Source of the DNA: Lama guanicoe
Taxonomy: Eukaryota
Direction: 5' to 3'
DNA length: 64,000 bases
Assembly (NCBI GenBank): GCA_013239625.1
Contig: MU053588.1
Span: 2,366,508-2,430,507 of the forward strand
Shown here: positions 19,667-38,500 of the stretch, piece by piece
How positions within the stretch are numbered: position 1 is the stretch's first letter
Layout: each line of letters starts with the position of its first letter
Translations under genes and position numbers: made by a program
The notes under the pieces: model-generated
The model's input: the letters and a program-made list of their open reading frames with translations, nothing else
Databases searched by the model: none
What the model was told of the DNA's origin: nothing

Positions 19667-19672
19667 AATAAA
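19667..19672 (+). terminator. SHKBP1: SHKBP1 polyadenylation signal (AATAAA)
   Basis: First AATAAA, about 160 nt after the stop codon. Confidence 0.8.
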
Positions 19673-19812
19673 GTTCTCACTGCCAACACCTTGGTTACAT
19701 TCTTAGAGGGTTTGGGGACCCCTAGGAAAATGTTGGGAGAGATCTGGTGCCCAACCAGGCCCATGGCTGTAGTTTCAAGAACATTTGTCTCTCCAGGTTT
19801 AAGTAAAGAAGA

Positions 19813-20003
19813 GGGCTGGAGGGTATAGCTCAGTGGTAGAGTGCATACTTGGCATTTTAGCATGCACAAGGTCCTGGGTTAAAATCCCAGTACCTCTAGA
19901 AAGGAAGGAAGGAAGGAAAGAAAGAAAAGGAAGGAAGGAAGGAAAGAAAGAAAAGGAAGGAAGGAAGGAAAGAAAAGAAAAGAAAAGAAAGACAGGAAGA
20001 AAG
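19813..20003 (+). mobile_element. tRNA-derived SINE (Vic-1-like) with expanded (GGAA/GAAA)n tail
   Basis: GGGTATAGCTCAGTGGTAGAG...GTCCTGGGTT, then about 100 nt of purine microsatellite. Confidence 0.85.
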
Positions 20004-21184
20004 GTTAATCACATCCACCTACTAGGAAAAAAAACAAGAAGGAGGAGGAGAAGAGAACTTGGTTTTTATAACTGGCTTCAGGTGTGGCTGGATCCAGGGC
20101 TCAAACACTCATCTAGAATGTTTTTTCATCTTTTGGCTTAGCTGTCCTCTGGGATCATTCTCAGTCACCTTTTCTCCACTCTGTGCCAAGATGACTCCAG
20201 GCAGCTCCTCAGCAACTTTTTTTCTCTAATAGCAGCTAAAATGGCAGGACTGATTTTCACTGGCTTAAACTGAGTCAGATGGCCACTCCTGAACCAATCA
20301 CTATGCCCTTCCATTGTTCCAGGTCTCATGTGCCCTCACAAAGCAGGCAGTGAGGTCATCCTCATGTTTTCAGAGTGGAGGAAGAGTTCCTGAAAGGTGA
20401 ATCAGGGTACTGTTACCAAAGCTGGGATAAATGGGTACAGGTTGACAGAAACACAGATGTCAGCTAAATGATTGCCACGTCCTTAACATTTGTATCCCAA
20501 ACTTCACCACTGCAAACATACTGCCCATATCCCTGGCTGTCCAATCTTTCATCTCTCTCCTGACCACACCAGAGAGGGTATGTGGAATAGAATCAGCTCA
20601 CCCCAGCCTGACATCCTTGAGACTTTCCCCTAGATAATACCTGTTTCTATGGCAACTCCTCAGGAAAGTTTTCTGCATCTTTTCCTTGGGTCAATGAAGA
20701 GAAGAGAAAGTGGGCCAACTAAGAACAAGGGATTTTAGGATATGCTAATTCCAGAATTCCAGAGTGTCTGGAATGCCAGTGCTTCTCTAACATGATGGAA
20801 TGGGGTCTAGAATGTTAGGTAATCTGGAACACAGGCATATGCTAGAGTGCTAGTGGATGAACAATATTAGGCTTCTCCCCTGCATAGCAAAGAATCCAGA
20901 CTGTTAAAGTTTCTGACAAAGGGACCTAGAAAGTCAGTGATTCTAGAACGGAAGAGCGTTCTAGAATGCCTGTGAATCTATACCAGTAGGAATATTTTAC
21001 AAGCCAGGGATTCTGGAATGCTAAGACTTATAGGAACACAGAAAGGAAATTGTATTACTAGGAAATCTAGAGCATAGGGGTATTCTGGAATGTCAGCCCT
21101 TCTAGATCATTAGAGGATGTGTTTGTGTTCAAAGAAATCCATAATGGCAAGTAGTCCTGGATTGCCAGAGAATCTAGAATGTGA

Positions 21185-21200
21185 ATGGGAGACCTAAAAT
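21185..21200 (+). CDS. LTBP4: Putative alternative first coding exon of LTBP4 (MGDLK...)
   Basis: ATG GGA GAC CTA AAA T followed by a consensus donor GTGAGT. It splices in frame to 25524-25582 (second frame) and then to the acceptor at 25736. It resembles the recalled human isoform start MGDVK. Confidence 0.55.
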
Positions 21201-23329
21201 GTGAGTGATTCTAAAACATGAGTGTTCTGGAATGTCTGTGAATCTCAAACTCTGGAAATGTTTTGACATTTCAGGGCATTCAGAACACTGGGGAAATGTT
21301 TGAATGTTAGGAAGTCTAGAATGTAGGAAGAGGTTGGGATGTGAGGGATCTAGAATATGGGAGTGTTTTTACAGATGCTCACAGATCTAGAATATTGAGA
21401 TTATTCTTTCCATGCCAGGGAATCCAGAACGCTTGTGTTTCTGGGATGCTAGCGATTCTAGAACTGAGAGAGAGAGAGAGAATGTTGGAAAATCTAGAAC
21501 ACTGGAGAGATTTGTTTGTTTGCTAATACAAGTGTAAAACTGTGTGTGAGCACATACAATGGGAGGGATCTTCTGGAATGCCACGACTCTAGAACTCAGG
21601 GATTCTGAAGGATTGAGATCAGATCAGAATCCAGGAGCGACATAGAAATGACCGTGGGAAACAGTGGCGCTGATAAGGAGGGATTGGGAGCAGAGAACTC
21701 CAAATTCTGGGGGGAGGGGAAGCCAACGCCATCCCCGGAAGTTGCAGTGGTGAGCCAGAGGCTGTTGCCTAGCAACGAGCATTGAAGATGCCCTGGATCC
21801 CAAGCAGAAGGGAGAAATTCGGCAGCGCCCCCAGCAAATGATCCAGCCACAGGGTAGGAGATGGGGAGGGGGGCAACAGGGGCAGGGACATGCTATCCTG
21901 CAGGGCCACGTTAGCAGGGATCTCGGGAGCTACACAAAGACAGGGACACTGAGCACATTCAGTGGGCAGAGCCAGACACTCCATTACTGAGCTGGGACAA
22001 ACCACGAAAGACTGTGAGTGGGGCCTGAGTACCGTGGTTTCTGCTCCAAGGGGCTGTGTGTCCCTGGATGGTGGGTGGGCCCAGGCTTCTGGGTGTCAGT
22101 GTTGGGTGGAGGCGTAGATTGCTGTAGGTGACAGTAATGGTATGAGTGTGGCTGTATGAGTCACCCCGTGTGCCTCACGGTAACACAGGGTGGAGGGATC
22201 CCCTATCCTCCTTGCACACCCTCCGTTTGGAAGAAGGAGCGGGAGATGGGGATAAGGTCGAAGCTGAATCGATTGCTTTTCTTAGTCTGGCGTTAGCCCT
22301 ATGGTCAGGGCTAATGGCCTAGTGTGGGCGGAGCCTGGGATCCACTGGGGTCGGGGCTAACGACACAGAACTGGAAACCTTAAGCATCAAACTGCTGAGA
22401 GAAATGGGGGTATGGAATCCCAGGACAAGGGGCAAACATAAAAGGGCTAGGGATTGGGATCCTAAGTGTAGGGCTGTGGCCCGATTCTCTGTACCAAAAG
22501 GTGTGGACTGAAATTCAAAGGAGAAATGGGCAACTAGGGGGCGGGGTCTGAACTCAGGATGTTTTTAGGAGAAGGGATGCGGAGTTTGTAATTTCTATAA
22601 GAAAGAAGTTGGGGCCTTGAATTCATAATGAAAGGAAGTGGCTAGGCTTGAGACCCTCTGTGTTGGGAGGTTGTGAGCAGGGTTTGGAGCCTGGAACCCA
22701 CGAAAGCAGGTGCAGGTGGGTAGTAAGGTACCTCGTGGCTTGGGGCTCCCCCTGGTAGAGGGGGCTGAAATTCTCTAAAGAAAGAATCTACAATTCTGGG
22801 AGTGGGAGGAGTGCTCTTGGGAGCCTTTAAAGACTCAGGCAGGGAAAGAATGTGTTACCCTCTAGGGGTGACAGTGAACAGGGGTGGGAGTGGAGTCTAT
22901 GGGTCCAGGACGGGAGGCTACAGCCTTCTGAGGAAGGGCTATTGTTTGTTGAGCCTGGAACCGCTGAAACACAGGGCCTTGAGAAGTGGCAAATCTTTGG
23001 GAAGGGCCTGGGGCCCCCAGAGGGGCCGGACCTGGAGCTCAGTGCAGGATTAGCACTCTGTCCCCAGAATTCTGAGTCTCTCATGTGAGAAGTGGGGACC
23101 TGTGATGTCTTTCAGCATCTATGTCAGTCAGAAAGCAAATTCTGATGGACTTCTCCCAGGAATGTAAGCAGAGGGATGAAGTCTTCGAGTGGGAGTCTAA
23201 TTTAGGGGAACCTGCCTACAGCCTACGCATTCCTCTCAGTCGTGAGAGGGGTCCCAGCACCTCCACAGGTGGGGACTCTCCTTTATGAGAGGATTCACTG
23301 AGGCAGTACCCTAGACAGCACTGAAAATT

Positions 23330-23572
23330 CCAGGCCCCGGCGCCCTCCGCCCAGCACCTGTCCCTTTGGCCCCTCCCCTGTCGTCTCCCGATTGGCCTCG
23401 CGGGCAGCGCCCCCTGGCGGCACCGGACTCTGATTGGCGGGAAGTTCGCAGCCCGCGACTGGGACAGTGGAGAAAATGAGTCGGCCTCCGGCGGGGGCGG
23501 AAGGCGGGGCCGCTCCGAGCCGGACCCGCTGGACAGACGGGCCGCCTGGAGCACTACTCCACGCCGGACACG
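23330..23572 (+). promoter_or_regulatory. LTBP4: LTBP4 long-isoform CpG-island promoter
   Basis: Inverted CCAAT (ATTGG) at 23391 and 23433, E2F-like TTGGCGGGAA, GC boxes, CTCF-like motif at 23404-23421, directly upstream of ATG 23573. Confidence 0.7.
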
Positions 23573-26500
23573 ATGCGGCTGCCTGGCCCCAGCGGCCGCC
23601 GCCCCCTCCTGCTGGTGCTGCTGCTACCGCTTCTTGCAGCGGCCGCCACAGCCGCCTCCGCCGCGGGCCTCAGCCCCAGCCAGGCCGTCGAGGTTGCGGT
23701 GATCCCGGGCCGCCCGGCTGGGTAAGCCCTGCTGCGGCCCCCTCATCCTTGTGCCCCCTCCACCCAATAAGTCTGGCGGTCCTGAAAGACCAGGACTTTC
23801 GGATTTAGGGGGATATGAGCCCACTGCCTCTGGATAGGAATGAAGACCAGAGCTCCTGGATTTATTAGGGCCCTCCCTCTATTTTGTAGGGGTTAGAATC
23901 CGAGGTGTACTGAGATTTTGAGGGGAAGGATTCTCCTCCTGTGTGGTAGAGACGGATATGGTTCCAGGGAATTCTAGAGTTTATTCGGAGAAGGGCCCCA
24001 GTTTATATGGGGATGGGGCTTTGAGCTCTCCTAAAATGATAGATGGGCGGGGCCGAGCTGGGATGGGGTTCCCCAAGCTTCTTGGGTGCTTAAGGAGGAA
24101 GAGTATGGGAGGTTATCACGGGACTTTATGGGGGAGTTGAGACGTCTTGGTTTTCTAGGGTTTGGGAACGCCTGAAATAATTAAAGGGACCTTTTCCTAA
24201 TAAGTTAGGAAAACGTGGACTTTTGGGTTGTTGGTGGAGGGGCTGTGGAAAACTGTGCGGAGGTGGGGCCTCCAGGTTTCATGAAGGTTGGGGATGCTCT
24301 AGTTTCCTAGAATTAGAGGATTCCAGGCTTGAATGAGGTACCAGTGATTTTGCGGCAAGAAATCCAGAATTTCCTATAGATTTGGGGTTATAGCCACCCT
24401 TCCTGTCCACGGGTGACGAGATCGAAGGAAATAGTCTGCCCAGTACCCCCAACCCCCGCCCTGCGGCCAGAGCTCCGTTACAAAGGCCCCGGGCTCCGCT
24501 CCCGCCTCGGTCTCTGCGAATGCGTTTAGTAACCCGAGCCGCGCCGGGGGCGGGGCTGGGAAGGGGTTAACCCGGAGAAAAGGCGGGAGGGATGACGACA
24601 GGATCAGGGGTCCCGGAGGCTCCCACCCGAGCAGCCACCTCCCCTACTGGGCCCCACCCGTCTGAAAAGAGTCCATACGCCCAGAGTCCCCTTCACAGCA
24701 TCCCCCCACTGCCCCTCTCTCCAGGCCTGCGCGCACTCCCTCGTCCCTCGTCCCCCTTAGCATGGGGACAATGGATTTGTCTGGGGGGCCCCTTGGTTGC
24801 GACGCACTTGCGCCCGAGCTGAGGGCTTCTCCAGCAAGAATCTGAGACCCTCCGGGCGCGGAGATTTCTCCAAGAACGACTCCTTCCTCCTGGTCAGGCG
24901 GAAAACTGAGGTTCAAAGACCAGGAGACGCTGGCTCCAGGACACACAGCGAGGAAGGGCAGGAACTGGCTAGAACTCTGGCCTCGGGATTCTCAGTCCTG
25001 GGCTGTGGCTCCTGTATCCCCCTCCACCTCAGCACCCCGCTGGACCCACAGTCAAAAGAGGACCTCCCTCCCCAGCCGTTGAGGCCTGTGGAAGTGGCGT
25101 CACCTGCCGGCCAATCTCGGGATGACGGCTGAGTCCAGGACAGGGACGTGCGGGGAGGGCGGGGTTCTAGATTCCCAGTTCGGGCTTGGAAATGCGGTTC
25201 GAAATCCTTTGAGTCTTTTTGAAAAATCATTTTTAAAGACTTTAAAATGTCGTTTCCAATAATACCTTACCCCAAACAATTCAAAAGTAAAATAGAACTG
25301 AGGTTTTTGTGACCTTAATCCCTGCAGAGTCTAAACCAGTCTGCTTCCCATTGTACAGATGGGGAAGCCGAGGCATCCAGCGCAGTGCCTCAGATTGGTC
25401 ACATCTCAATTTTGAGCACCCTCAAGCCTTACCTTGGCTTTCCCTTCCCTATCCCTCATTTCCCTCCTTTGGGGAGTTCTACAGTGCTAGGGGCCTGAGT
25501 GACTTCCTCTCCTCTATTTATAGTGTTGCTGCTTGTCGCTGCTGCCCAGGCCGGTTGCCCAGGAGGAGCCGCTGCTTCAGAGGTGGGTTCCTGTAGGTGG
25601 GGTATAGGTGTGGGGGTGGGGGGAGGTGGTAGGAGCAGAGGAGCTGAGGGCTCCCTTCCCCACCCCCTTATTTCAGCTGGAGAGCTGAATGCACTTGGTG
25701 GAAAGAGGGACTCAGTCACCTCCTTCTCCACTTAGTCCCTGGCTGTCTCTGAAGCCTCCTGCAGGGTCCTGAGCTGCCAGCCCAAAAAGTGTGCAGGCCT
25801 TCAGCGGTGCCTGACTCCAGTGTCCCCAGAGCTGCCCAGCCCCAGCCCTAGCGTGAAGAAGAGACAGGTGTCCCTTAACTGGCAGCCACTGACGTGAGTG
25901 TGTAACCCTCCCCAATAGCTCCCAACTCCTCCACCATTTCCAGCACATCTTTCTCTCCCCTCCTTTGCTCTCTCTCTATCAACTTGTATCTGTTTCTATT
26001 TCTCCTTTTCCTGCCTATCACTGTCTCTGGGTCTTTCAGTTTCTGTCTCTCTGTCTCTATCTCCATGTCCCCTTCTCTGTATTTGTTCTTTCCATCTGTC
26101 TCTGTTCCTCTTCGTACTTACCTGTCTCATTTCCTCTGTGTCTCTCTTCTCTCTCTCTCTCCTTTCTTCATCTCTGTTTCTCCCACCATCTTTTTCTCTG
26201 TTTCTTTTAAGCTTCTACGGAGCGCTCAAGGCCTGGTCCCGGTAAGGAGATGGAGGTGGGAGGGACAGAGCCTCCACTAGGAGACCTCCTGGTGTGGGAG
26301 GCCCCTTCCAGCCGAGGGTGAGCCAGCCTAACCGCGGTGACAGCTCCTCCTCTGCACCCCTCCAACCCAGGCTGCAGGAGGCCCGAGCTCTGCTGAGGCG
26401 ACGGCGGCCCCGCGGGCCGGGGGCCCGGGCACTGCTGAGGAGGAGGCCCCCGCAGCGCGCCCCCGCCGCCCAGGCCCGGGGTAAGAACATCCGCCCTTCC

Positions 26501-29500
26501 TCCTTGGGGAGGGGGGGGGGAGGATTCCGGGTCAGATAAAGCTGTCTGGTTCCCACGGTCCAGCCGCCGCCTAGCCGCCCCCCATTGTAGCTCGGCACCC
26601 CTCCCCAGGTCGCAGCCCCCTCTAGGGACCCTGGCGTCCGGCCGCGCGAGGTGAACCCGGGACAGGACCAGACGCCGGCCAGAGGCGCTGACCCGAGGGG
26701 GTGGGGCCGGGAAGCCAAGTGTCCGGGCTCCCGGCAGCCGAAGAGGGGGGCGCTGTCCCAGCAGAGAGTGCAGCCGAACTAGCCCAGACAACAAAAGCGA
26801 TTGTACGGGTTGGCGCCTGCCCGGTCACCGAATGCCCAAAATTGAGGGGGGTGGCTAGGGGCCAAGGGCCTCCCACTGCGTTCCCCACCCTCCTTCTGCC
26901 CTCCTCTGGCTTCAGCGCTCGGCTCCTGGGCTAGCACACCCCCTAGTCTCAGCCACCCTCGAAAGTCCCCCTCTTGCTGTGGCCTTCAGCCCAGATGTGT
27001 CCCCTCCTCCCTAAAGTCTTCCAGATGTGGGCCTCCGGCCAGACGTGAGGACCCCCGCCCACAATCTCAATCCACCGTTTCCCCTAATCCATTCCGACTT
27101 ATACCAGGTGTGAGGGTCTTGGTCAGATGTGACTGCATCCTCAGATGTGCCCCTCCAGCGTCCTGCCCACCATCCAGACCCCCAATTCCTGCATGTGCCC
27201 TGGTACACCGACCCTTCTCCTCTCCCCTAGATGTGCCACCTGGCTGCCCAGATGTGCCATGACAGCCCCGTACCCACATGAAGCCCCTTTCTCTGTGCCT
27301 AACGCGGAGACAGCCTTTAGCCTTCTCCCCAAATGTGGCCCCCACTACTCTTTCCTTTTTATGGATTCAGCCCTGTCGGGGGGGGGGGAATCGGCCCGCC
27401 CCCACCTGTTGCCTTCCCCGCCACTCCCCTGCGGGCCCCATTCACTTGTTGGTGTGAGGCGGGGGCAGAGGGGGCGCTCCCCTTCCCCCTGCGAGTCTAG
27501 CGCCCAGCCTGCGCGCCTCTGGCTGCGGGCCCAGCCCCACGCGCCCCCGCGCGGCCGCCGGGGAGGGAGTGGTGGGGAGGGGGGGCCTGAGCGGGGGCCC
27601 CGCCGCCCTCCCCCGCGGGCGGGCGGGCGCGGCCGGGCCCCTCGGGCGGGCTGGGGCGGCGACGCGGCGGAGCGCGGCGCTGCAGCCATGGCGGGCGGCG
27701 CGCGGCTGCTCTGGGTGTCGCTATTGGTGCTGCTGGCGCTGCTCCGGCCGCAGCCCGGGCTGTGCCGGCCCCGAGAGCGCCTCCGCGTGCGCTTCACCCC
27801 GGCCGTGTGCGGCCTGAGCTGCGTCCATGGGCCCACCGGCCCCCGCTGTACCCCGACCTGCGCGCTCCGCAACGCCACCAGCGTGGACAGCGGCGCGCCC
27901 GGCGGGGCGGCCCCGGGGGGACCCGGCTTCCGCGCCTGTGAGTGCGGGGTGGTGGTCCCGAGGGAGGGGTTCCCAGGGGGAGGAGGATCCTTGGGATGGG
28001 GGAGTCAGTCCGCTAGGGGGAGGGAGCCCAGATTCCGTGTGCAGTAGGGCTGGGGAATCCCTAGCCTATTTAAGGAAGAGAGCCTCAAATTCCTGGCTTT
28101 TGGGGTTGGGTCCTGAGGGTCTTGATTTCGCAAGCAATAAGGGTTCCCAGGGACCTGTGGCGTCCCATGCGAGGGGATTGGGGCCGAATTTCACGCCTTT
28201 GAGTCAAATTGGGGAATACCAGAATTGAGGGGTTTGGGAGCTTGAGGGAAAGGGGTCCCAATTCTGAGACTGAGTCAGGGGTCCCCAGAATCCAAGGGGG
28301 AGTTCCAGGGCTATGAAGGGTGTCCCAATTTCTGCATCTTTGGATGGGAGGGATTAGGCAAGTCCAGGATGGGAGTGCCTGGAAAGAGGGAGATTGGGGT
28401 GAGGAAAGTTGGTCCGGAGAGCTGAGAGGGAAAGAGTCTATAGAAGCAGGGCTCTGCAGGACCCTGAGTTGCAAGGGTCGCACGTGGAAGAGCAATCCAG
28501 ATAGGAAGCCTAGGAGGAAATGCGCCCCCTGGGGGCGGAGGGGACAGAAGGAGGTTGTGTACCAGGCTCCCCTAGAGACGGGGAGCCCCTGGGAGGGGTT
28601 CAGGTGAGGTGGGGGGTTGGTAGGACACCTGTTGGCCGCAGGGTGTGGTGATGAGTGGGCTCTCAGGGTCCGGCCCTACCTGCCTCCAGCCCCGGAGGCC
28701 CTCTGGAGTGGGGAGTAGGGGCCCCTGGCGCTGAGAACTCGCCCAGCCTGGCCTCCAGCCAACCCAGCCCTGGCCGGCGTGAGCTCATCTCCCGCCTGAG
28801 CCCCCGCCCACTGCCACTCCCTCTCTCCTCCCCTTCCTCCCTCCTTCCTCCACTCCCTCCCGGCCCAACCCCAACTTGCCCGTGCCAGGCGCCGTGCCCA
28901 GGAGGGTGCCAAGCCCCTGGAGGCACAAGGAGGGGCCTCCGGAGGGGGACTGACCTCGGGAGGACCTCGATGTCCTCAGCTCCTCATTCTTCTAGGGGTG
29001 TGGGGCATGGAGATGCCTGTGCCCATCTAGCAGCCCGCCCTGGGTGTGGGAGCCCTCAGGGAGCTGGGTGGTGGGTGGGGGGCCTACATTCAGGCCAAGA
29101 AAAGATAGAGAAATTTCTTTGGAGATTAGGAAATGCCCCCAGAACTAGCTGGATTACCACCACTCCTAGCAGAGACCCTATTTTGGAATTTGATTCCTAG
29201 TTCAGCCTCTCCTTAGACCTGCCACTCAATTAAGGACCCTTATTAGAGCACCCTGGAACCCTGGCCTGACTCTCCTCACCAGCAAAGCCCAGTGTCTCTA
29301 CCCTCAGGCCCTAAACCCCTCCGCACCTCTATCAGCAGACTCCGGACCGACCCCTCCAGTGAAATTCGCTCCCATTCTTCTGATATAATCTCCCCAAACT
29401 GTGCCCCTCACCAGATAACTCTGTAGTGTTGTCCCTTAGCTACCCCTCCTTGCTTCCAGGGGAAACCCCAGATTACAAGCTCTATAATAAGCAGAGTGAT

Positions 29501-32500: not shown

Positions 32501-35500
32501 GGCAGGGGTGGGAGGAGCTTGGCTCGAGGGATGGGGCTGGCGAGGAGCTTGCCCCTGACCCCACTGGGATCACCCTGTACCTCGTAGATGTGGATGAGTG
32601 CGCGACTGGTGGGCGCTGCCAGCACGGCGAGTGTGCGAACACGCATGGAGGGTACACCTGCGTGTGCCCCGACGGCTTCCTGCTCGACTCGTCCCGCAGC
32701 AGCTGCATCTGTGAGCCACCGGGGCCTGAAGCTGGGTCCCATGTCCACCTGCTTTTATGCCAGAGCATCCCTGGGTCTAATTCTCTTAGACTGCCACTTC
32801 CCCAACCTCTCAGACTCTTACACACTCTCAAACTCCCTGGACCTTCTTCAATTTCTTTAAGAACTCCCCAAACTTTTTGGATCTAGATCTCTTTAGATCC
32901 CCCAGACTTTCATCAGCTCCTCTCGGGCTCCCAAATACCCTCATCTGTCTCGACCACCACACCTTCTTCAGATCCTGAGATCCTTCCCAGATTGGCTCAT
33001 CCACCCCTCAGATTCTCCTCAGGCCCCAAACTCTTCTCAGACCTCAGACCCCTCAGCTCTCCTTTAGACTCCCAGAGCTCTCCTAAATGCCCCTCACACC
33101 CACCGAACCCTCCTTGGGACCCTTCCCCTGCCTCACAGATCCCCTAATTCCTCTACATTCCCAACCCCGCCCTGAAGAATTTTCTCCCTTTCCCCCAGCC
33201 CAACACGTGATCTCAGAGGCCAAAGGGCCCTGCTTCCGCGTACTCCGCGACGGCGGCTGCTCGCTACCCATTCTTCGCAACATCACCAAACAGATCTGCT
33301 GCTGTAGCCGCGTAGGCAAAGCCTGGGGCCGGGGTTGCCAGCTCTGCCCACCTTTCGGCTCAGGTGAGTTCCTCCTGTCAGGCCCTGCTCTAGATTTGAT
33401 GCAAACAGCCCCAATTCCAGTCTTTGCCCCTCCAACTAGGTTAGACCCTAGCCTTGACCATTCCCTCGGCCTCTGAGACAGCCTATCTTAAGACAGGACT
33501 CTGCCTGGGTCCCCACCCCACTTTGGCCACACCCACACCTAAGACACAGGAACTTGAAGTTAGGCTGTGTCCTCTGGGTGTCACCCCCAGCCTCTGCCTC
33601 CCCTAGCCCTTGAGATGTGCTGCCTCCCAACCTTTCCCCCAGGCTTTGGCCAAGTCCCCAGTTCCTGAGACACTGCCTTCATCCTAGGCTCCACCTTGAG
33701 CCCCGCCCCAGATATGCCCCTCCCAGAGACACCTCCCTGGCAATCTTCTGCATAAAGCCAAACCCCACAATGGACCTTACTGTTTCCTGGCCTTCAACCT
33801 TGTCCCTGTAGACACCAAACCACCTGCTGTAAACTACTGTCCCTGCCATCATCCCAAAGAGAAAAACATCATTGGTCCTACCCTTAGCCTCTGAGACATC
33901 CATTCTTTGGCCAGGGTACCACCCCATCTCAGCAGCCAACCCAAACTCCTGACACACTCCCAGGCCAAGCTCTATCCTCAGTCAGGGCCAGACACTATAC
34001 TCCCTTCCTTTCTCCCTCCCCACCTCCTTCTCATCCCCTCCTGCTCTCTTGACCTCTCTCTGCTGATCTTCCTCCCTTTCCTGTTCCCAGAGGGATTTCG
34101 GGAGATCTGTCCAGCTGGCCCTGGCTACCACTATTCAGCCTCCGATCTCCGCTACAACACCAGACCCCTGGGCCAGGAGCCACCCCGAGTGTCCCTCAGC
34201 CAGCACCGTGTCCCATCCTCCACCTCTCGGCCACCCACAGGTGAGCTGGCTTCTGGAGGAGGGAGTGTCATCTCCAAGGGGCTGCCCCAGCCCTATAGAG
34301 AAAAGGGGAGATGAGTGAGGACACCCAAATACAGGTCTCCACTGCTGATATCCCTTCTTTACCAGGCTTTCTGCCCACTCATCGTCCAGAACCCCGGCCA
34401 GAGCCCCGGCCAGAGCCCCGGCCAGGCCCTGAGCTTCCCTTGCCCAGCATCCCTGCCTGGACTGGTCCTGATATCCCAGAATCAGGTGTGGTAGAGGGGA
34501 TCAAGGGCGTTAATGGGGGTATTACAGGCAGGAGTTGGGGGTGGGAAGCTCCAAAGTGAAGATTGCAGAGTAGAACAAATAGGGATGTGACAGACAGAGG
34601 AGTTATGGAGTGGGTGAGAAAAGAAAGATTTGAAGGATGGGGTGCTGTTACATCAGGAGCTGGAGTCAGACTGGTCTGGATGCAAGTTCTCTATCAATTA
34701 GGCATATCATTTTAACCTCTCTGAGCCTCAGTTTCCTCATCTATAAAATGCGGAGTTGTCTCTGAAGTACGTGGCACATAGTAAGTGCTCAGTTAATGTT
34801 AAACAAATAATTAGTTTTCACAACACTAAGAACATATCTCAGGCAGAGGACTGGAGCAAAATACTCAAAAATGGAGACTTTGGGGCTGGATTAGGTAGAG
34901 GATCTGATGAGAATGTCCCATGATGAAGGACAGGGGTGTCAGAGGGGGAAGACTGGATTTGAGGAGAGACATCCATGAGGGTGTTTTAGGCGGAGGATCT
35001 GAGGGGATTGTGCTGGGATGAAAGGGACAGAGGATTTATAGATGGGGGAACTCTGGCTAACTCGATCCCCACAGGTTCTTCTGCGGGAGAGTGTCAGCGC
35101 AATCCCCAGATCTGCGGCCCTGGACGCTGCATCCCCCGGCCCAGTGGCTACACCTGCTTATGCGACTCCGGTTTCCGGCTCAGCCCGCAGGGCAGACACT
35201 GCCTGAGTGAGCCAGGTGGAGGGGGGGGGGNNNNNNNNNNNNNNNNNNNNNNNNNNNNNNNNNNNNNNNNNNNNNNNNNNNNNNNNNNNNNNNNNNNNNN
35301 NNNNNNNNNNNNNNNNNNNNNNNNNNNNNNNNNNNNNNNNNNNNNNNNNNNNNNNNNNNNNNNNNNNNNNNNNNNNNNNNNNNNNNNNNNNNNNNNNNNN
35401 NNNNNNNNNNNNNNNNNNNNNNNNNNNNNNNNNNNNNNNNNNNNNNNNNNNNNNNNNNNNNNNNNNNNNNNNNNNNNNNNNNNNNNNNNNNNNNNNNNNN

Positions 35501-38500
35501 NNNNNNNNNNNNNNNNNNNNNNNNNNNNNNNNNNNNNNNNNNNNNNNNNNNNNNNNNNNNNNNNNNNNNNNNNNNNNNNNNNNNNNNNNNNNNNNNNNNN
35601 NNNNNNNNNNNNNNNNNNNNNNNNNNNNNNNNNNNNNNNNNNNNNNNNNNNNNNNNNNNNNNNNNNNNNNNNNNNNNNNNNNNNNNNNNNNNNNNNNNNN
35701 NNNNNNNNNNNNNNNNNNNNNNNNNNNNNNNNNNNNNNNNNNNNNNNNNNNNNNNNNNNNNNNNNNNNNNNNNNNNNNNNNNNNNNNNNNNNNNNNNNNN
35801 NNNNNNNNNNNNNNNNNNNNNNNNNNNNNNNNNNNNNNNNNNNNNNNNNNNNNNNNNNNNNNNNNNNNNNNNNNNNNNNNNNNNNNNNNNNNNNNNNNNN
35901 NNNNNNNNNNNNNNNNNNNNNNNNNNNNNNNNNNNNNNNNNNNNNNNNNNNNNNNNNNNNNNNNNNNNNNNNNNNNNNNNNNNNNNNNNNNNNNNNNNNN
36001 NNNNNNNNNNNNNNNNNNNNNNNNNNNNNNNNNNNNNNNNNNNNNGCGTGGGTGAGCCAGGTGGAGGGGGGGGGACGGAGGCAGGGCGGGAGGGGGCGCT
36101 CTACCTGGTCACCTCCTGACCAGACCCCTCCATACCCTCAGACGTGGATGAATGTCGCCGTGTGCCCACGCCCTGTGCTCCCGGGCGCTGCGAAAACACT
36201 CCAGGCAGCTTCCGTTGCGTGTGCGGTCCGGGCTTCCGAGCCGGCCCGCGCGCTGCGGAGTGTCTGGGTGAGAAATACAGGCTCCACCCCTGCTGCGGTC
36301 CCACGCCCCTTCGGCCCAACTACTGCCTTGGCCCTGGCCCTGGCCCCAGAACAGCTCCCGCTCTCGCTTCGGCCCCACCACTGCCTCTTCCTGGCCCAGC
36401 GGGCCCTTCCCGTCGGGGCAGGTCCCTGCTCTACTACCGCCGGGACTCTCCGGGACTAGGTCCCGGCTCCGTCCCTCCCTTTGCCCCTCCCCTGCAATAT
36501 TCCAGACTAGCTCCTGCCCTCTGCCAGGCCCCTCCCCTGTCAGACAGCTGTGGCAAACTATCTCCTGACCACGACTCCTGATTTCCATCCAGTGCCAGGT
36601 CCCCAAACCAGCCCTTCCCTCGCTTCTGCCTTCCCTTTGTTCGGCCCCCAAAGCTGTCCTTCCCATCCTTGCCCTCCCCAGGCCTTGCCCTCCCCAAATG
36701 GCCCCCCTCACGTTTCTCCTCTTTACCTCGGCCCTGGCTGGGTCCCCAGCCACAGTCCTGCCCTTCCCGCTTATGCTTCGCTTTAGTCTTGAACCGACCC
36801 ACTCCGAACCCCCTACAGCCCCGGGCTCCCGCCCCAGCCGGCCCCCGCCTAAGCTTGGCTCCGCCCCCGCCATCCCCGCTCCGCCAAACCGTCTGGGGGA
36901 GGGGAGGAGGCTGAGTGTCTGCCCCAGTCCCAAGCACTCGGTTTGTGCCCGCAGACGTGGACGAGTGCCACCGCGTACCGCCACCGTGTGACCGTGGGCG
37001 CTGCGAGAACACGCCAGGCAGCTTCCTGTGCGTGTGCCCCGCTGGGTACCAGGCTGCACCCCATGGAGCCAGCTGCCAGGGTGAGGGACTGGGGATGTAG
37101 GGGGGGAGGGTAGAGCAGCAATGGTGAAGGATGGAGAGATGAAGAGACAGAGCAATTAGGAAGAGGGAGGCTGATTGATGGGTTCTCAGAGGCCAGGCTC
37201 TGAGAACCAGACATGCAGCCTGTTGGGGATGGAGAGGTCAAATGATGGAAAATAGGAAGGCTGAGCCATAGAGGATAGAGAAGCAGGATGGGGGATGGAG
37301 ATGTCATTAATGGGGGAAGGGGTAGAGTTATGGAGGACAGAGTATAAGGAGGCCAACTGACATGGACTAGGAAGATTGAGTTCTAAGAGGCAGACAGGAA
37401 GCTTAATAGGGATTGAAAAATGAGACGAATGGAGGATGGAGAGTTAGAATGATGGGGGATAAGGTGGCAGAGTGATGGAGGGTGGAAACTCCAAGAGATG
37501 GAGGTCAGGGAAGCGGAGTAGAGCACGGAGGCAGTTGGTTTGCAGGGAGGTTCATAAAGAAGGTGTGACCTGGGTCCTTTGCTCTGGGCAGATGTGGACG
37601 AGTGCATCCAGAGCCCAGGCCTGTGCGGCCGAGGGGTCTGTGAGAACCTGCCTGGCTCTTTCCGCTGTGTGTGCCCGGCTGGCTTCCGGGGCTCGGCGTG
37701 CGAAGAGGATGTGGATGAGTGCGCCCAGGAGCCACCGCCCTGTGGGCCAGGCCGTTGTGACAACACAGTGGGCTCCTATCACTGTGCCTGCCCAGCTGGC
37801 TTCCGCTCCCGAGGGCCAGGGGCTCCCTGCCAAGGTGAGGGTGCTGAGTCTAAGCCCACTTCACCTGCATTTGCTGTGAGGACTGGAAAGAGACACGATT
37901 GGGGGGCAGAGAGGCAGGGTGATGAGGCTCAGTGAAGGAGGGCAGGGAGGGGGTGCAATGAAGGGATGGGGAGGGTCTGGCTTCAGAGTCTTCTCCTCTT
38001 TCTCCAAATATGGAGAATTCCTCCTCCCTTTTGAGTGTTACTTTGGATGTGCTTGTGAGAACCCTTAGGAGGGGACAACTCTGAGGCAGGGAAAGCAACA
38101 TACAGGAGGTGGTGCCCTAGCCTCATCTGGGCAGCTGCAGAGACAATTAATGGGGAAACAATGAAAGGGTCTGTCCTTCTGGGAGGAGGGAGCATCCTGA
38201 GCGAAGTCCAGGATGCTGCCTCCAGGATGGAATGTTGTGGTGCACGGTGATGGTAGGGAGTCCAGGCCCTTTCCTCAGCCCCACTGGTCTCCTCTGCCCC
38301 AGATGTGGATGAGTGTGCCCGTAGCCCCCCGCCCTGCGCCTATGGCCGGTGTGAGAACACAGAAGGCAGTTTCCAGTGCGTCTGCCCCACGGGTTTCCAG
38401 CCCAATGCTGCTGGCTCCGAGTGCGAGGGTGAGGCCGGGGAGGGAGGGAGGAGTGTGGATGGGTGAGGAGGCTGTTGGGCCACTCCTTCAAGACCACCCT

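Follow-up and report, generated by a model that had tools for sequence, protein, structure and literature searches.

The LTBP4 locus of Lama guanicoe raises the question of whether one short exon can be read in two frames, giving a cysteine-rich segment in one transcript and a signal peptide in another, and whether the choice of promoter then decides which 3' splice site follows. Such a coupling was proposed in a preliminary description of the locus. Frames and coordinates were read here directly from the sequence of a 64,000-nt window on contig MU053588.1, and recomputation reproduced every coordinate and frame of that description. The parts of the gene concerned are as follows.

23573..23721, plus strand: LTBP4L first exon, coding part, with a long signal peptide and a phase-2 donor, inside a CpG island
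25524..25582, plus strand: 59-nt dual-frame exon with a TAG acceptor and a GTGGGT donor
25736..25754, plus strand: 19-nt extension opened by the upstream acceptor (TAG, 15/17 pyrimidines), which restores the main frame after second-frame reading
25755..25893, plus strand: exon 3 as spliced at the L acceptor (AAG, 12/17 pyrimidines), with four further cysteines
26371..26480, plus strand: exon 4, an Arg/Pro-rich linker common to L and the mini-exon form
26591..26625, plus strand: putative alternative exon that runs into a stop after 11 codons; its product would be 125-126 aa
27688..27937, plus strand: LTBP4S first exon, coding part, placed by sequence and translation (CpG observed/expected 0.80)

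The gene was modelled exon by exon against the humpback whale L protein (1,628 aa). The modelled L form has 1,630 aa, with 1,553 identities to the whale protein, and its first exon (CpG observed/expected 0.75) matches whale L at 87%. After this first exon, the 59-nt exon encodes a CRCC-containing peptide with four cysteines and stays in frame only with the acceptor at 25755. After a 16-nt mini-exon at 21185-21200, it is read in a second frame as an LLLVAAA core plus GGAAA, and it stays in frame only with the acceptor at 25736. The two open frames, each tied to its own acceptor, are therefore as first described. The mini-exon form comes to 1,592 aa with no internal stop and an intact downstream open reading frame, in agreement with the earlier estimate of about 1592 aa. 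Mismatched pairings stop early: the L exon with 25736 at codon 75, the mini-exon with 25755 at codon 31.

The preliminary description pointed to a human isoform of this kind, and a primate one exists. Orangutan PNJ19027.1, annotated as 'LTBP4 isoform 2' (1,587 aa), has the same 5-residue first exon, the second frame, the upstream acceptor and the full downstream protein. The likeness to human NM_003573 (ENST00000204005) is drawn through this orangutan model, and the N-terminus of NM_003573 we take to be this one. On sequence grounds, Lama guanicoe appears to keep every part of this annotated minor human LTBP4 isoform. The architecture is thus less of a surprise than it first seemed, as the isoform is not new in human: besides the orangutan match, NM_003573 is named in print (PMC4019825), and a 2026 catalogue of dual-coding regions (DCRs) by Goubert et al. 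lists LTBP4 as DCR 1553, Q8N2S1-1 versus Q8N2S1-3 (isoforms 1 and 3) (PMC13160074). DCR 1553, tabulated without coordinates, would be the 59-nt exon. Q8N2S1-3 carries no evidence indicator there, DCR 1553 is absent from the frame-by-tissue table, and the main text mentions neither LTBP4 nor signal peptides (PMC13160074).

No AG occurs in the 20 nt before the one at 25736, and this acceptor has a better pyrimidine tract than 25755. It looks like the stronger acceptor for any transcript, and the proposed coupling of promoter to acceptor choice finds no support here. If the promoter did steer the 3' splice site, the mini-exon would prefer 25736 and the L exon 25755. All 11 second-frame protein models described below do pair with the upstream acceptor, and none of the fetched L-type models does; but in-frame pairings alone are visible in protein models, so this pattern is forced. 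Moreover, the one module is entered from at least five unrelated first exons, and a promoter-specific mechanism would have to treat them all alike. We consider active steering very improbable. Independent splicing followed by loss of out-of-frame products suffices, and dedicated coupling is not needed.

A different role for the upstream acceptor would be that of a switch, in which L transcripts spliced to 25736 are degraded and the L:S ratio is tuned, the third N-terminus being secondary. The strength of this acceptor and the stop at codon 75 would suit such a role, as would the catalogue itself, where a truncated protein is the usual outcome of a dual-coding region and NMD follows in at least a third (PMC13160074). 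However, both LTBP4 isoforms are marked no_NMD in the catalogue, a mark that concerns in-frame pairings only (PMC13160074), and a switch leaves the hydrophobic second frame unexplained. It appears improbable as the main function.

The candidate first exons lie upstream of the L promoter.

20750..21600, no strand assigned: degenerate 17-18-bp array with TCTAGAA-like cores, holding the mini-exons at 21185 and 21304
21185..21200, plus strand: ATG-led mini-exon of 16 nt, MGDLK + 1 nt, phase-1 donor GTGAGT
21304..21322, plus strand: second candidate mini-exon, MLGSLE + 1 nt, weak donor GTAGGA
21838..21853, plus strand: third candidate mini-exon, MIQPQ + 1 nt, donor GTAGGA
25122..25142, plus strand: counterpart of the red deer first coding exon, MTAESRT, 7/7 identity, followed by GG

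The mini-exon at 21185-21200 is borne out by the sequence, and it is the predicted orthologue of the primate first exon. Of 5,710 positions it gives the best match to the orangutan first exon, with 4/5 identity, and the start of the Molossus model also matches best here. Its donor ranks in the top 1.5% of 3,128 plus-strand GT sites by a simple frequency matrix. ATG, length, phase and a good donor are kept between primates and Lama guanicoe. It is not alone, as six short candidates with an ATG and a phase-1 donor scoring at least 1 occur in 19700-25500. The Rousettus model KAF6410889.1 opens with the 21304-21322 peptide (6/6 identical). The exon at 21838-21853, whose ATG is overlapped by the stop of an upstream open reading frame from 21788, is the best match for the non-primate first exon shared by the pangolin, banteng and white-tailed deer models, and the window keeps its ATG and GT; the Rhinopithecus start matches this region as well. 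The red deer first exon was considered as an array unit and rejected, since it maps to 25122, where Lama guanicoe has no GT donor at the equivalent place. No place was found for the Rhinolophus first exon, whose best match, at 22608, lacks a donor, and the yak model was left out of this mapping.

The array holds 23 cores against 2.7 expected (maximum 7 in 500 simulations), mostly spaced at multiples of 17-18, and the mini-exon at 21185-21200 is itself one unit. A search that skips common words returned a lone self match, so that the array is single copy in the Lama guanicoe genome and is ruled out as a dispersed repeat. It contains eight perfect two-unit and three near-perfect (8/9) three-unit heat shock element (HSE)-like sites, and a five-unit HSE-like site (12/15) directly follows the 21200 donor; no perfect three-unit element was found in the window. 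This raises the prospect of a start region under HSF control, used during stress or within a restricted tissue such as testis, that feeds interchangeable Met exons into a two-way 59-nt module kept across boreoeutherians. The product would be a selected signal peptide on a third secreted LTBP4 that lacks the first 4-Cys repeat, perhaps along with a secreted short form of about 125 aa; the peptide of 26591-26625 matches an ending common to six bat short models. CAGE would have missed such a start, as unstressed samples dominate. LTBP4 is a listed core HSF1 target, and a human K562 HSF1 list includes an 810-bp site somewhere in the SHKBP1-LTBP4 interval. That site is not among the transcribed distal elements, going by our reading of the label, and a link of RFX2 to testis was not found in print. 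After 30 min of heat shock in K562, the LTBP4S gene body fell to 0.61-fold; upstream transcripts would also cross this gene body. Taken as a whole, the heat-shock scenario is rather unlikely.

A more mundane account is that the isoform is a by-product: leaky upstream transcription, by read-through from SHKBP1 or as enhancer RNA of the array, meets a cryptic AG in an acceptor tract, and annotation pipelines retain whichever pairing gives an open reading frame, with no selected protein. The SHKBP1 poly(A) hexamer lies just 1.5 kb upstream, array units supply ATG and AAT|GT words by composition, and the first exons vary among species. In human, FANTOM5 CAGE shows no promoter for NM_003573 (PMC4019825). 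The 19-nt extension also sits within the tract of the L acceptor, which confounds its conservation. Against this account stand the primate-type exon, retained from primates to Lama guanicoe, and the non-primate exon that three other species share.

How far the arrangement is kept in mammals was judged from protein models. The second frame with the upstream acceptor occurs in 11 of 82 fetched proteins (11 of the 56 that carry exon 3), from orangutan, pangolin, red deer, white-tailed deer, banteng, yak, four bats and common shrew. These parts recur in models of five mammalian orders. With at least five different first exons among them, the 21185 mini-exon does not hold up as the conserved partner. 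Many of these models may derive by projection from human: TOGA projections and transcripts are mixed in the bat annotation, so that all four bat models could be projections, and the orangutan model is presumably open to the same doubt. Five of the 11 come from RefSeq (XP models); the first exons of those that could be mapped are not orthologues of the primate exon, a result that projecting the human protein would hardly produce. No second-frame model was found among the fetched carnivore, horse, hedgehog, rodent, whale, afrotherian and sloth proteins, with 15 of 131 main-cluster members listed, and a cotton-rat read-through model suggests that the upstream acceptor is weakened in rodents. A representative-protein search gave 11 matches (10 already in the set, one unrelated), and a metagenome scan for DNA of other mammals matched 267 stretches, none confirmed. 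A query of 20900-21900 matched 24 sequencing runs, of which 14 RNA or RNA-guess runs contained only 6-16% of its words and are not counted as evidence.

Whether the second frame is there by chance was addressed by 100,000 synonymous recodings of the 59-nt exon under three codon models. It stayed open in 86%, 75% and 92% of them, so openness alone is at chance level and was rejected as a sign of design. The exon shows the two frames open over a shared interval by which Goubert et al. define a DCR, as chance would lead one to expect. All three frames are in fact open, and each has a rescuing AG, the third at 25765, which again suits a by-product. What this account does not predict is the hydrophobic core, since the first seven residues are as hydrophobic in only 0.2-0.6% of recodings, and an equally hydrophobic 7-residue window arises anywhere in 2.8%. 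Across a 12-species tree, limited to species with an intact model, three wobble changes fall in the seven core codons (two of the three Ala to Val) versus 14 in the other 12, a difference with a binomial p of 0.056 in a test that was picked after the data were seen and omits the last codon, which the donor fixes; a one-residue gap was hand-placed in two short models (Rousettus and Pipistrellus). The exon begins with four T wobbles in a row, found in none of the 30 other exons of the gene, and splicing constraints at the exon start could equally hold these bases. The rare core and the fewer wobble changes hint at a selected signal peptide, and the by-product account is possible, though doubtful.

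That the second-frame N-terminus is a signal peptide is plausible. The preliminary description judged the peptide to look like a real one, and its hydrophobic core stands, but the n-region has one Asp and one Lys and no net positive charge, and basic residues are absent from the versions that start at 21838 and 21304. Sec signal peptides have an h-region of about 7-15 hydrophobic residues and, behind a helix-breaking residue, small side chains at -3 and -1. The h-region here is marginal, with 8 residues and a hydropathy of 3.1; over 12 residues the mini-exon form reaches 2.1 versus 3.05 for L and 2.93 for S. Candidate cleavage sites are A-Q-A at 13-15, or Pro/Gly followed by A-A-A at 21-23. 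Cleavage after the latter is most likely and would also remove the lone cysteine. Residues 21-23 are AAA, AAV or ATA in 12 of 12 peptides, and the L frame also fixes these codons.

The explanation we favour, at somewhat better than even confidence, is that the locus is an intact orthologue of the minor human NM_003573 isoform, in which an interchangeable first exon feeds a module of exon plus upstream acceptor without dedicated coupling. Weak transcription outside a CpG island, upstream of the L promoter, would supply a tiny exon, one among several, that opens with ATG and ends at a phase-1 donor. Splicing onto the 59-nt exon would set its hydrophobic second frame, a short, presumably secretory signal peptide would replace the first four-cysteine segment, and by arithmetic the AG at 25736 would restore the main frame. 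Every transcript probably has access to both acceptors, mismatched pairings being lost to early stops, and the exon and upstream acceptor would form the conserved core. Production of the isoform in useful amounts and any promoter-splice linkage are putative.

LTBP4 is the gene behind cutis laxa type 1C and a modifier of muscular dystrophy. NM_003573 serves clinical papers as a reference transcript, and reviews describe L and S only; if the isoform is a by-product, it is a poor reference. Variants in the 59-nt exon would call for interpretation in two frames if the third form is secreted. Compared with the primate isoform, the Lama guanicoe peptide has the higher 8-residue hydropathy (3.10 vs 2.73) and lacks the RSRR stretch that follows the primate core, and the locus retains further candidate mini-exons.

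LTBP4L and LTBP4S likewise differ at the N-terminus, each with its own promoter, and share a common body (PMC4381339, PMC8224675), with two N-terminal 4-Cys repeats in L and one in S. The third form would keep the exon 3-4 segment of L but not the four cysteines encoded by the 59-nt exon, presumably the first 4-Cys repeat. The L-specific N-terminus gives tighter fibulin-4/-5 binding, and part of it would be missing from a secreted third form. The catalogued dual-coding regions share the plan of one exon, two frames and different upstream exons, yet 81.7% truncate the C-terminus, and internal regions that return to the original frame number just 56 (4%) (PMC13160074). If selected, a frame-shifted signal peptide with downstream frame restoration would therefore be an uncommon architecture. 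In CDKN2A, alternative first exons likewise set the frame of a shared exon for INK4A and ARF (PMC13160074); that gene yields two unrelated proteins, whereas in LTBP4 the frame is restored after 59 nt and the N-terminus alone changes.

We lean, if only somewhat, towards reading the third form of LTBP4 (the one that starts at a 16-nt mini-exon) as a low-level or narrowly expressed LTBP4 with a short predicted signal peptide. It would arise because the first exon and the acceptor are spliced independently of each other, the out-of-frame products then being lost.

LTBP4 stands after a gene that is read as SHKBP1 from its 3′ coding sequence and the human gene order, with a poly(A) hexamer at 19667. 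The region is single copy in the genome. The full model, which required a wider search at one exon junction, yielded an L form of 1,630 aa (1,553 of 1,628 residues identical to the humpback whale model) and a third form of 1,592 aa, as the preliminary description had estimated. An 815-N assembly gap (35231–36045) lies within an LTBP4 intron and costs no exon. A short tRNA-like sequence, presumably SINE-like, followed by an (AAGG/AGAA)n tail, occupies 19810–20004 directly after the SHKBP1 poly(A) signal. The positions and frames first proposed for the mini-exon, the 59-nt exon and both acceptors all proved correct. The parts of the N-terminal region are:

21185–21200, forward strand: mini-exon, ending in phase 1
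23573–23721, forward strand: coding part of the L first exon, ending in phase 2
25524–25582, forward strand: 59-nt exon, open in three of three frames
25736, forward strand: upstream acceptor; TAG, 15/17 pyrimidines, first AG beyond a 20-nt AG-free stretch
25755, forward strand: acceptor of exon 3; AAG, 12/17 pyrimidines
25765, forward strand: third AG, restoring the main frame after the third open frame of the 59-nt exon

After the L first exon, the 59-nt exon encodes a cysteine-rich peptide and only 25755 is in frame. After the mini-exon it is read one frame over, and only 25736 is in frame. The mismatched pairings reach stops at codon 75 (L with 25736) and codon 31 (mini-exon with 25755). 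It is improbable that the upstream acceptor serves as an NMD switch for L, by way of the former pairing. A model from arctic fox uses the third frame. The supposedly alternative acceptor 25736 looks stronger than 25755 and is therefore probably used behind any first exon, so that the coupling of promoter choice to acceptor choice originally suggested becomes superfluous. The matched pairs that seemed to speak for active coupling are forced, since protein models cannot show out-of-frame pairings; such coupling is very improbable.

Signal peptides are judged by the charge before the hydrophobic stretch, hydropathy and small-residue sites. The proposed resemblance to a signal peptide held in part: the third form has a hydrophobic stretch of eight residues (hydropathy 3.1 across them; L 3.17) and small-residue sites at 13–15 and, after Pro-Gly-Gly, at 21–23, but no net positive charge precedes the stretch, and hydropathy taken over 12 residues is lower (2.1 vs 3.05 in L and 2.93 in S). 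The predicted signal peptide is plausible but marginal. The orangutan peptide is weaker (2.73).

The L peptide was held fixed in 100,000 synonymous recodings under each of three codon models. Under gene codon usage the second frame stayed open in 86%, under uniform usage in 75%, and in 92% when usage was made to depend on the following G, so its openness is no evidence. Seven hydrophobic residues at its start were found in 0.64%, 0.47% and 0.2% of recodings, a 7-residue window of equal hydrophobicity anywhere in 2.8%, and the four consecutive T wobbles on which this core rests start 0 of 30 other LTBP4 exons, figures that overstate the case because the core was chosen post hoc. The rival view of the third form as a by-product has the readily open frame on its side and the core against it; we hold it rather unlikely.

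Protein searches and cluster look-ups gave 82 proteins, the main cluster being represented by 15 of 131 members. Exon 3 was present in 56 and the L-frame cysteine motif in 41, while 11 combined second-frame reading with acceptor 25736 (orangutan, pangolin, red deer, white-tailed deer, banteng, yak, Molossus, Rhinolophus, Rousettus, Pipistrellus and common shrew). Their first exons differ among species, and were placed by scoring about 5,700 upstream positions of the window, minus one 80-base stretch:

21185, forward strand: orangutan and Molossus, best-scoring position
Array unit directly after the 21200 donor: Pipistrellus, best-scoring position
21304, forward strand: Rousettus, 6/6
21838, forward strand: pangolin, banteng and white-tailed deer, best-scoring position
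~21957: shrew, best-scoring position
25122, forward strand: red deer, 7/7, no donor at this site in the window

The ATG and a phase-1 GT are retained at 21185, 21304 and 21838. The stop of an upstream ORF (21788–21840) overlaps the ATG at 21838; since its counterpart in white-tailed deer and Rhinopithecus models is in frame with that mini-exon, a one-base indel sets this genome apart. Two X-box-like palindromes (~20643 and ~21764) are the sole matches to the RFX pattern in the 64-kb window. Some 70 nt separate the second from the 21838 mini-exon downstream of it, which may hint at expression in ciliated cells or testis.

The second-frame peptide discloses the L wobble base of each species. By parsimony on a 12-species tree, with intact models only, three changes (two being Ala to Val) fell in the seven core codons vs 14 in the other twelve (p = 0.056), and at the core positions the L peptide itself varies freely (V/A/L/I, A/P/L/S/V/G, A/S/V). 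This pattern, expected of a constrained second frame, weakly suggests one; splicing constraints at exon starts also bear on wobble bases. Better, though indirect, signs of real splicing probably come from the five RefSeq XP models whose first exons are not of the primate type, given how such models are built. The independence of the bat models is limited, because their annotation is described as mixing TOGA projections with Iso-Seq transcripts from brain, testes, liver or kidney (PMC8075899).

Six short bat models (four second-frame, two L-type) end in the peptide of candidate exon 26591–26625, which stops after 11 codons, suggesting truncated forms of 125–168 aa. No canonical poly(A) hexamer occurs at 26400–27700. 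Acceptor 27108, before the S promoter, resembles, with what looks like an indel, the ending of the short pangolin model. A possible cryptic exon at 26208–26242, between exons 3 and 4, has an AG-ending pyrimidine tract and a GTAAGG donor at its flanks.

A degenerate array between SHKBP1 and LTBP4 (20750–21600, CpG o/e 0.26) holds 23 TCTAGAA-like cores, mostly spaced by multiples of 17–18, where 2.7 cores would be expected and none of 500 simulations gave more than 7. It contains eight perfect two-unit heat-shock-element-like sites (reached in 0/300 simulations), three near-perfect three-unit sites (1/300) and no perfect three-unit site; a five-unit 12/15 site begins 20 nt past the 21200 donor (12/300). 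In HSF1Base, LTBP4 is one of 162 core human targets of HSF1, entered as bound, activated and uncharacterised (PMC6888953). A study of cows with high body temperature (five animals per group) reported that no gene was more strongly up-regulated in their blood cells than LTBP4 (PMC11482606). A K562 list, taken to be of HSF1 sites, holds chr19:41,099,759–41,100,569, between the SHKBP1 end and LTBP4S start in human (PMC5557961). A heat-induced upstream transcript is disfavoured, because the LTBP4S gene body dropped to 0.61-fold in that heat-shock experiment (PMC5557961).

No discussion of LTBP4 dual coding or of this signal peptide was found in the literature searched. Giltay 1997, Saharinen 1998 and Kantola 2010, the first accounts of its cloning and promoters, may describe this third N-terminus. 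Reviews and functional studies recognise two main isoforms, L and S, each with its own promoter (PMC3669142, PMC8224675, PMC4381339, PMC11960800, PMC12587707); of the two, L carries a pair of 4-Cys repeats at its N-terminus and is the tighter binder of fibulin-4/-5. For the minor human isoform NM_003573, FANTOM5 data are reported to show no promoter (PMC4019825). A dual-coding catalogue enters LTBP4 isoforms 1 and 3 as DCR 1553, without NMD; isoform 3 carries no evidence indicator there, and DCR 1553 is missing from the frame-by-tissue table (PMC13160074). Judged by its sequence, the third form is a real, intact orthologue of the annotated minor human isoform, and its parts, as had been proposed, survive in a distant mammal.
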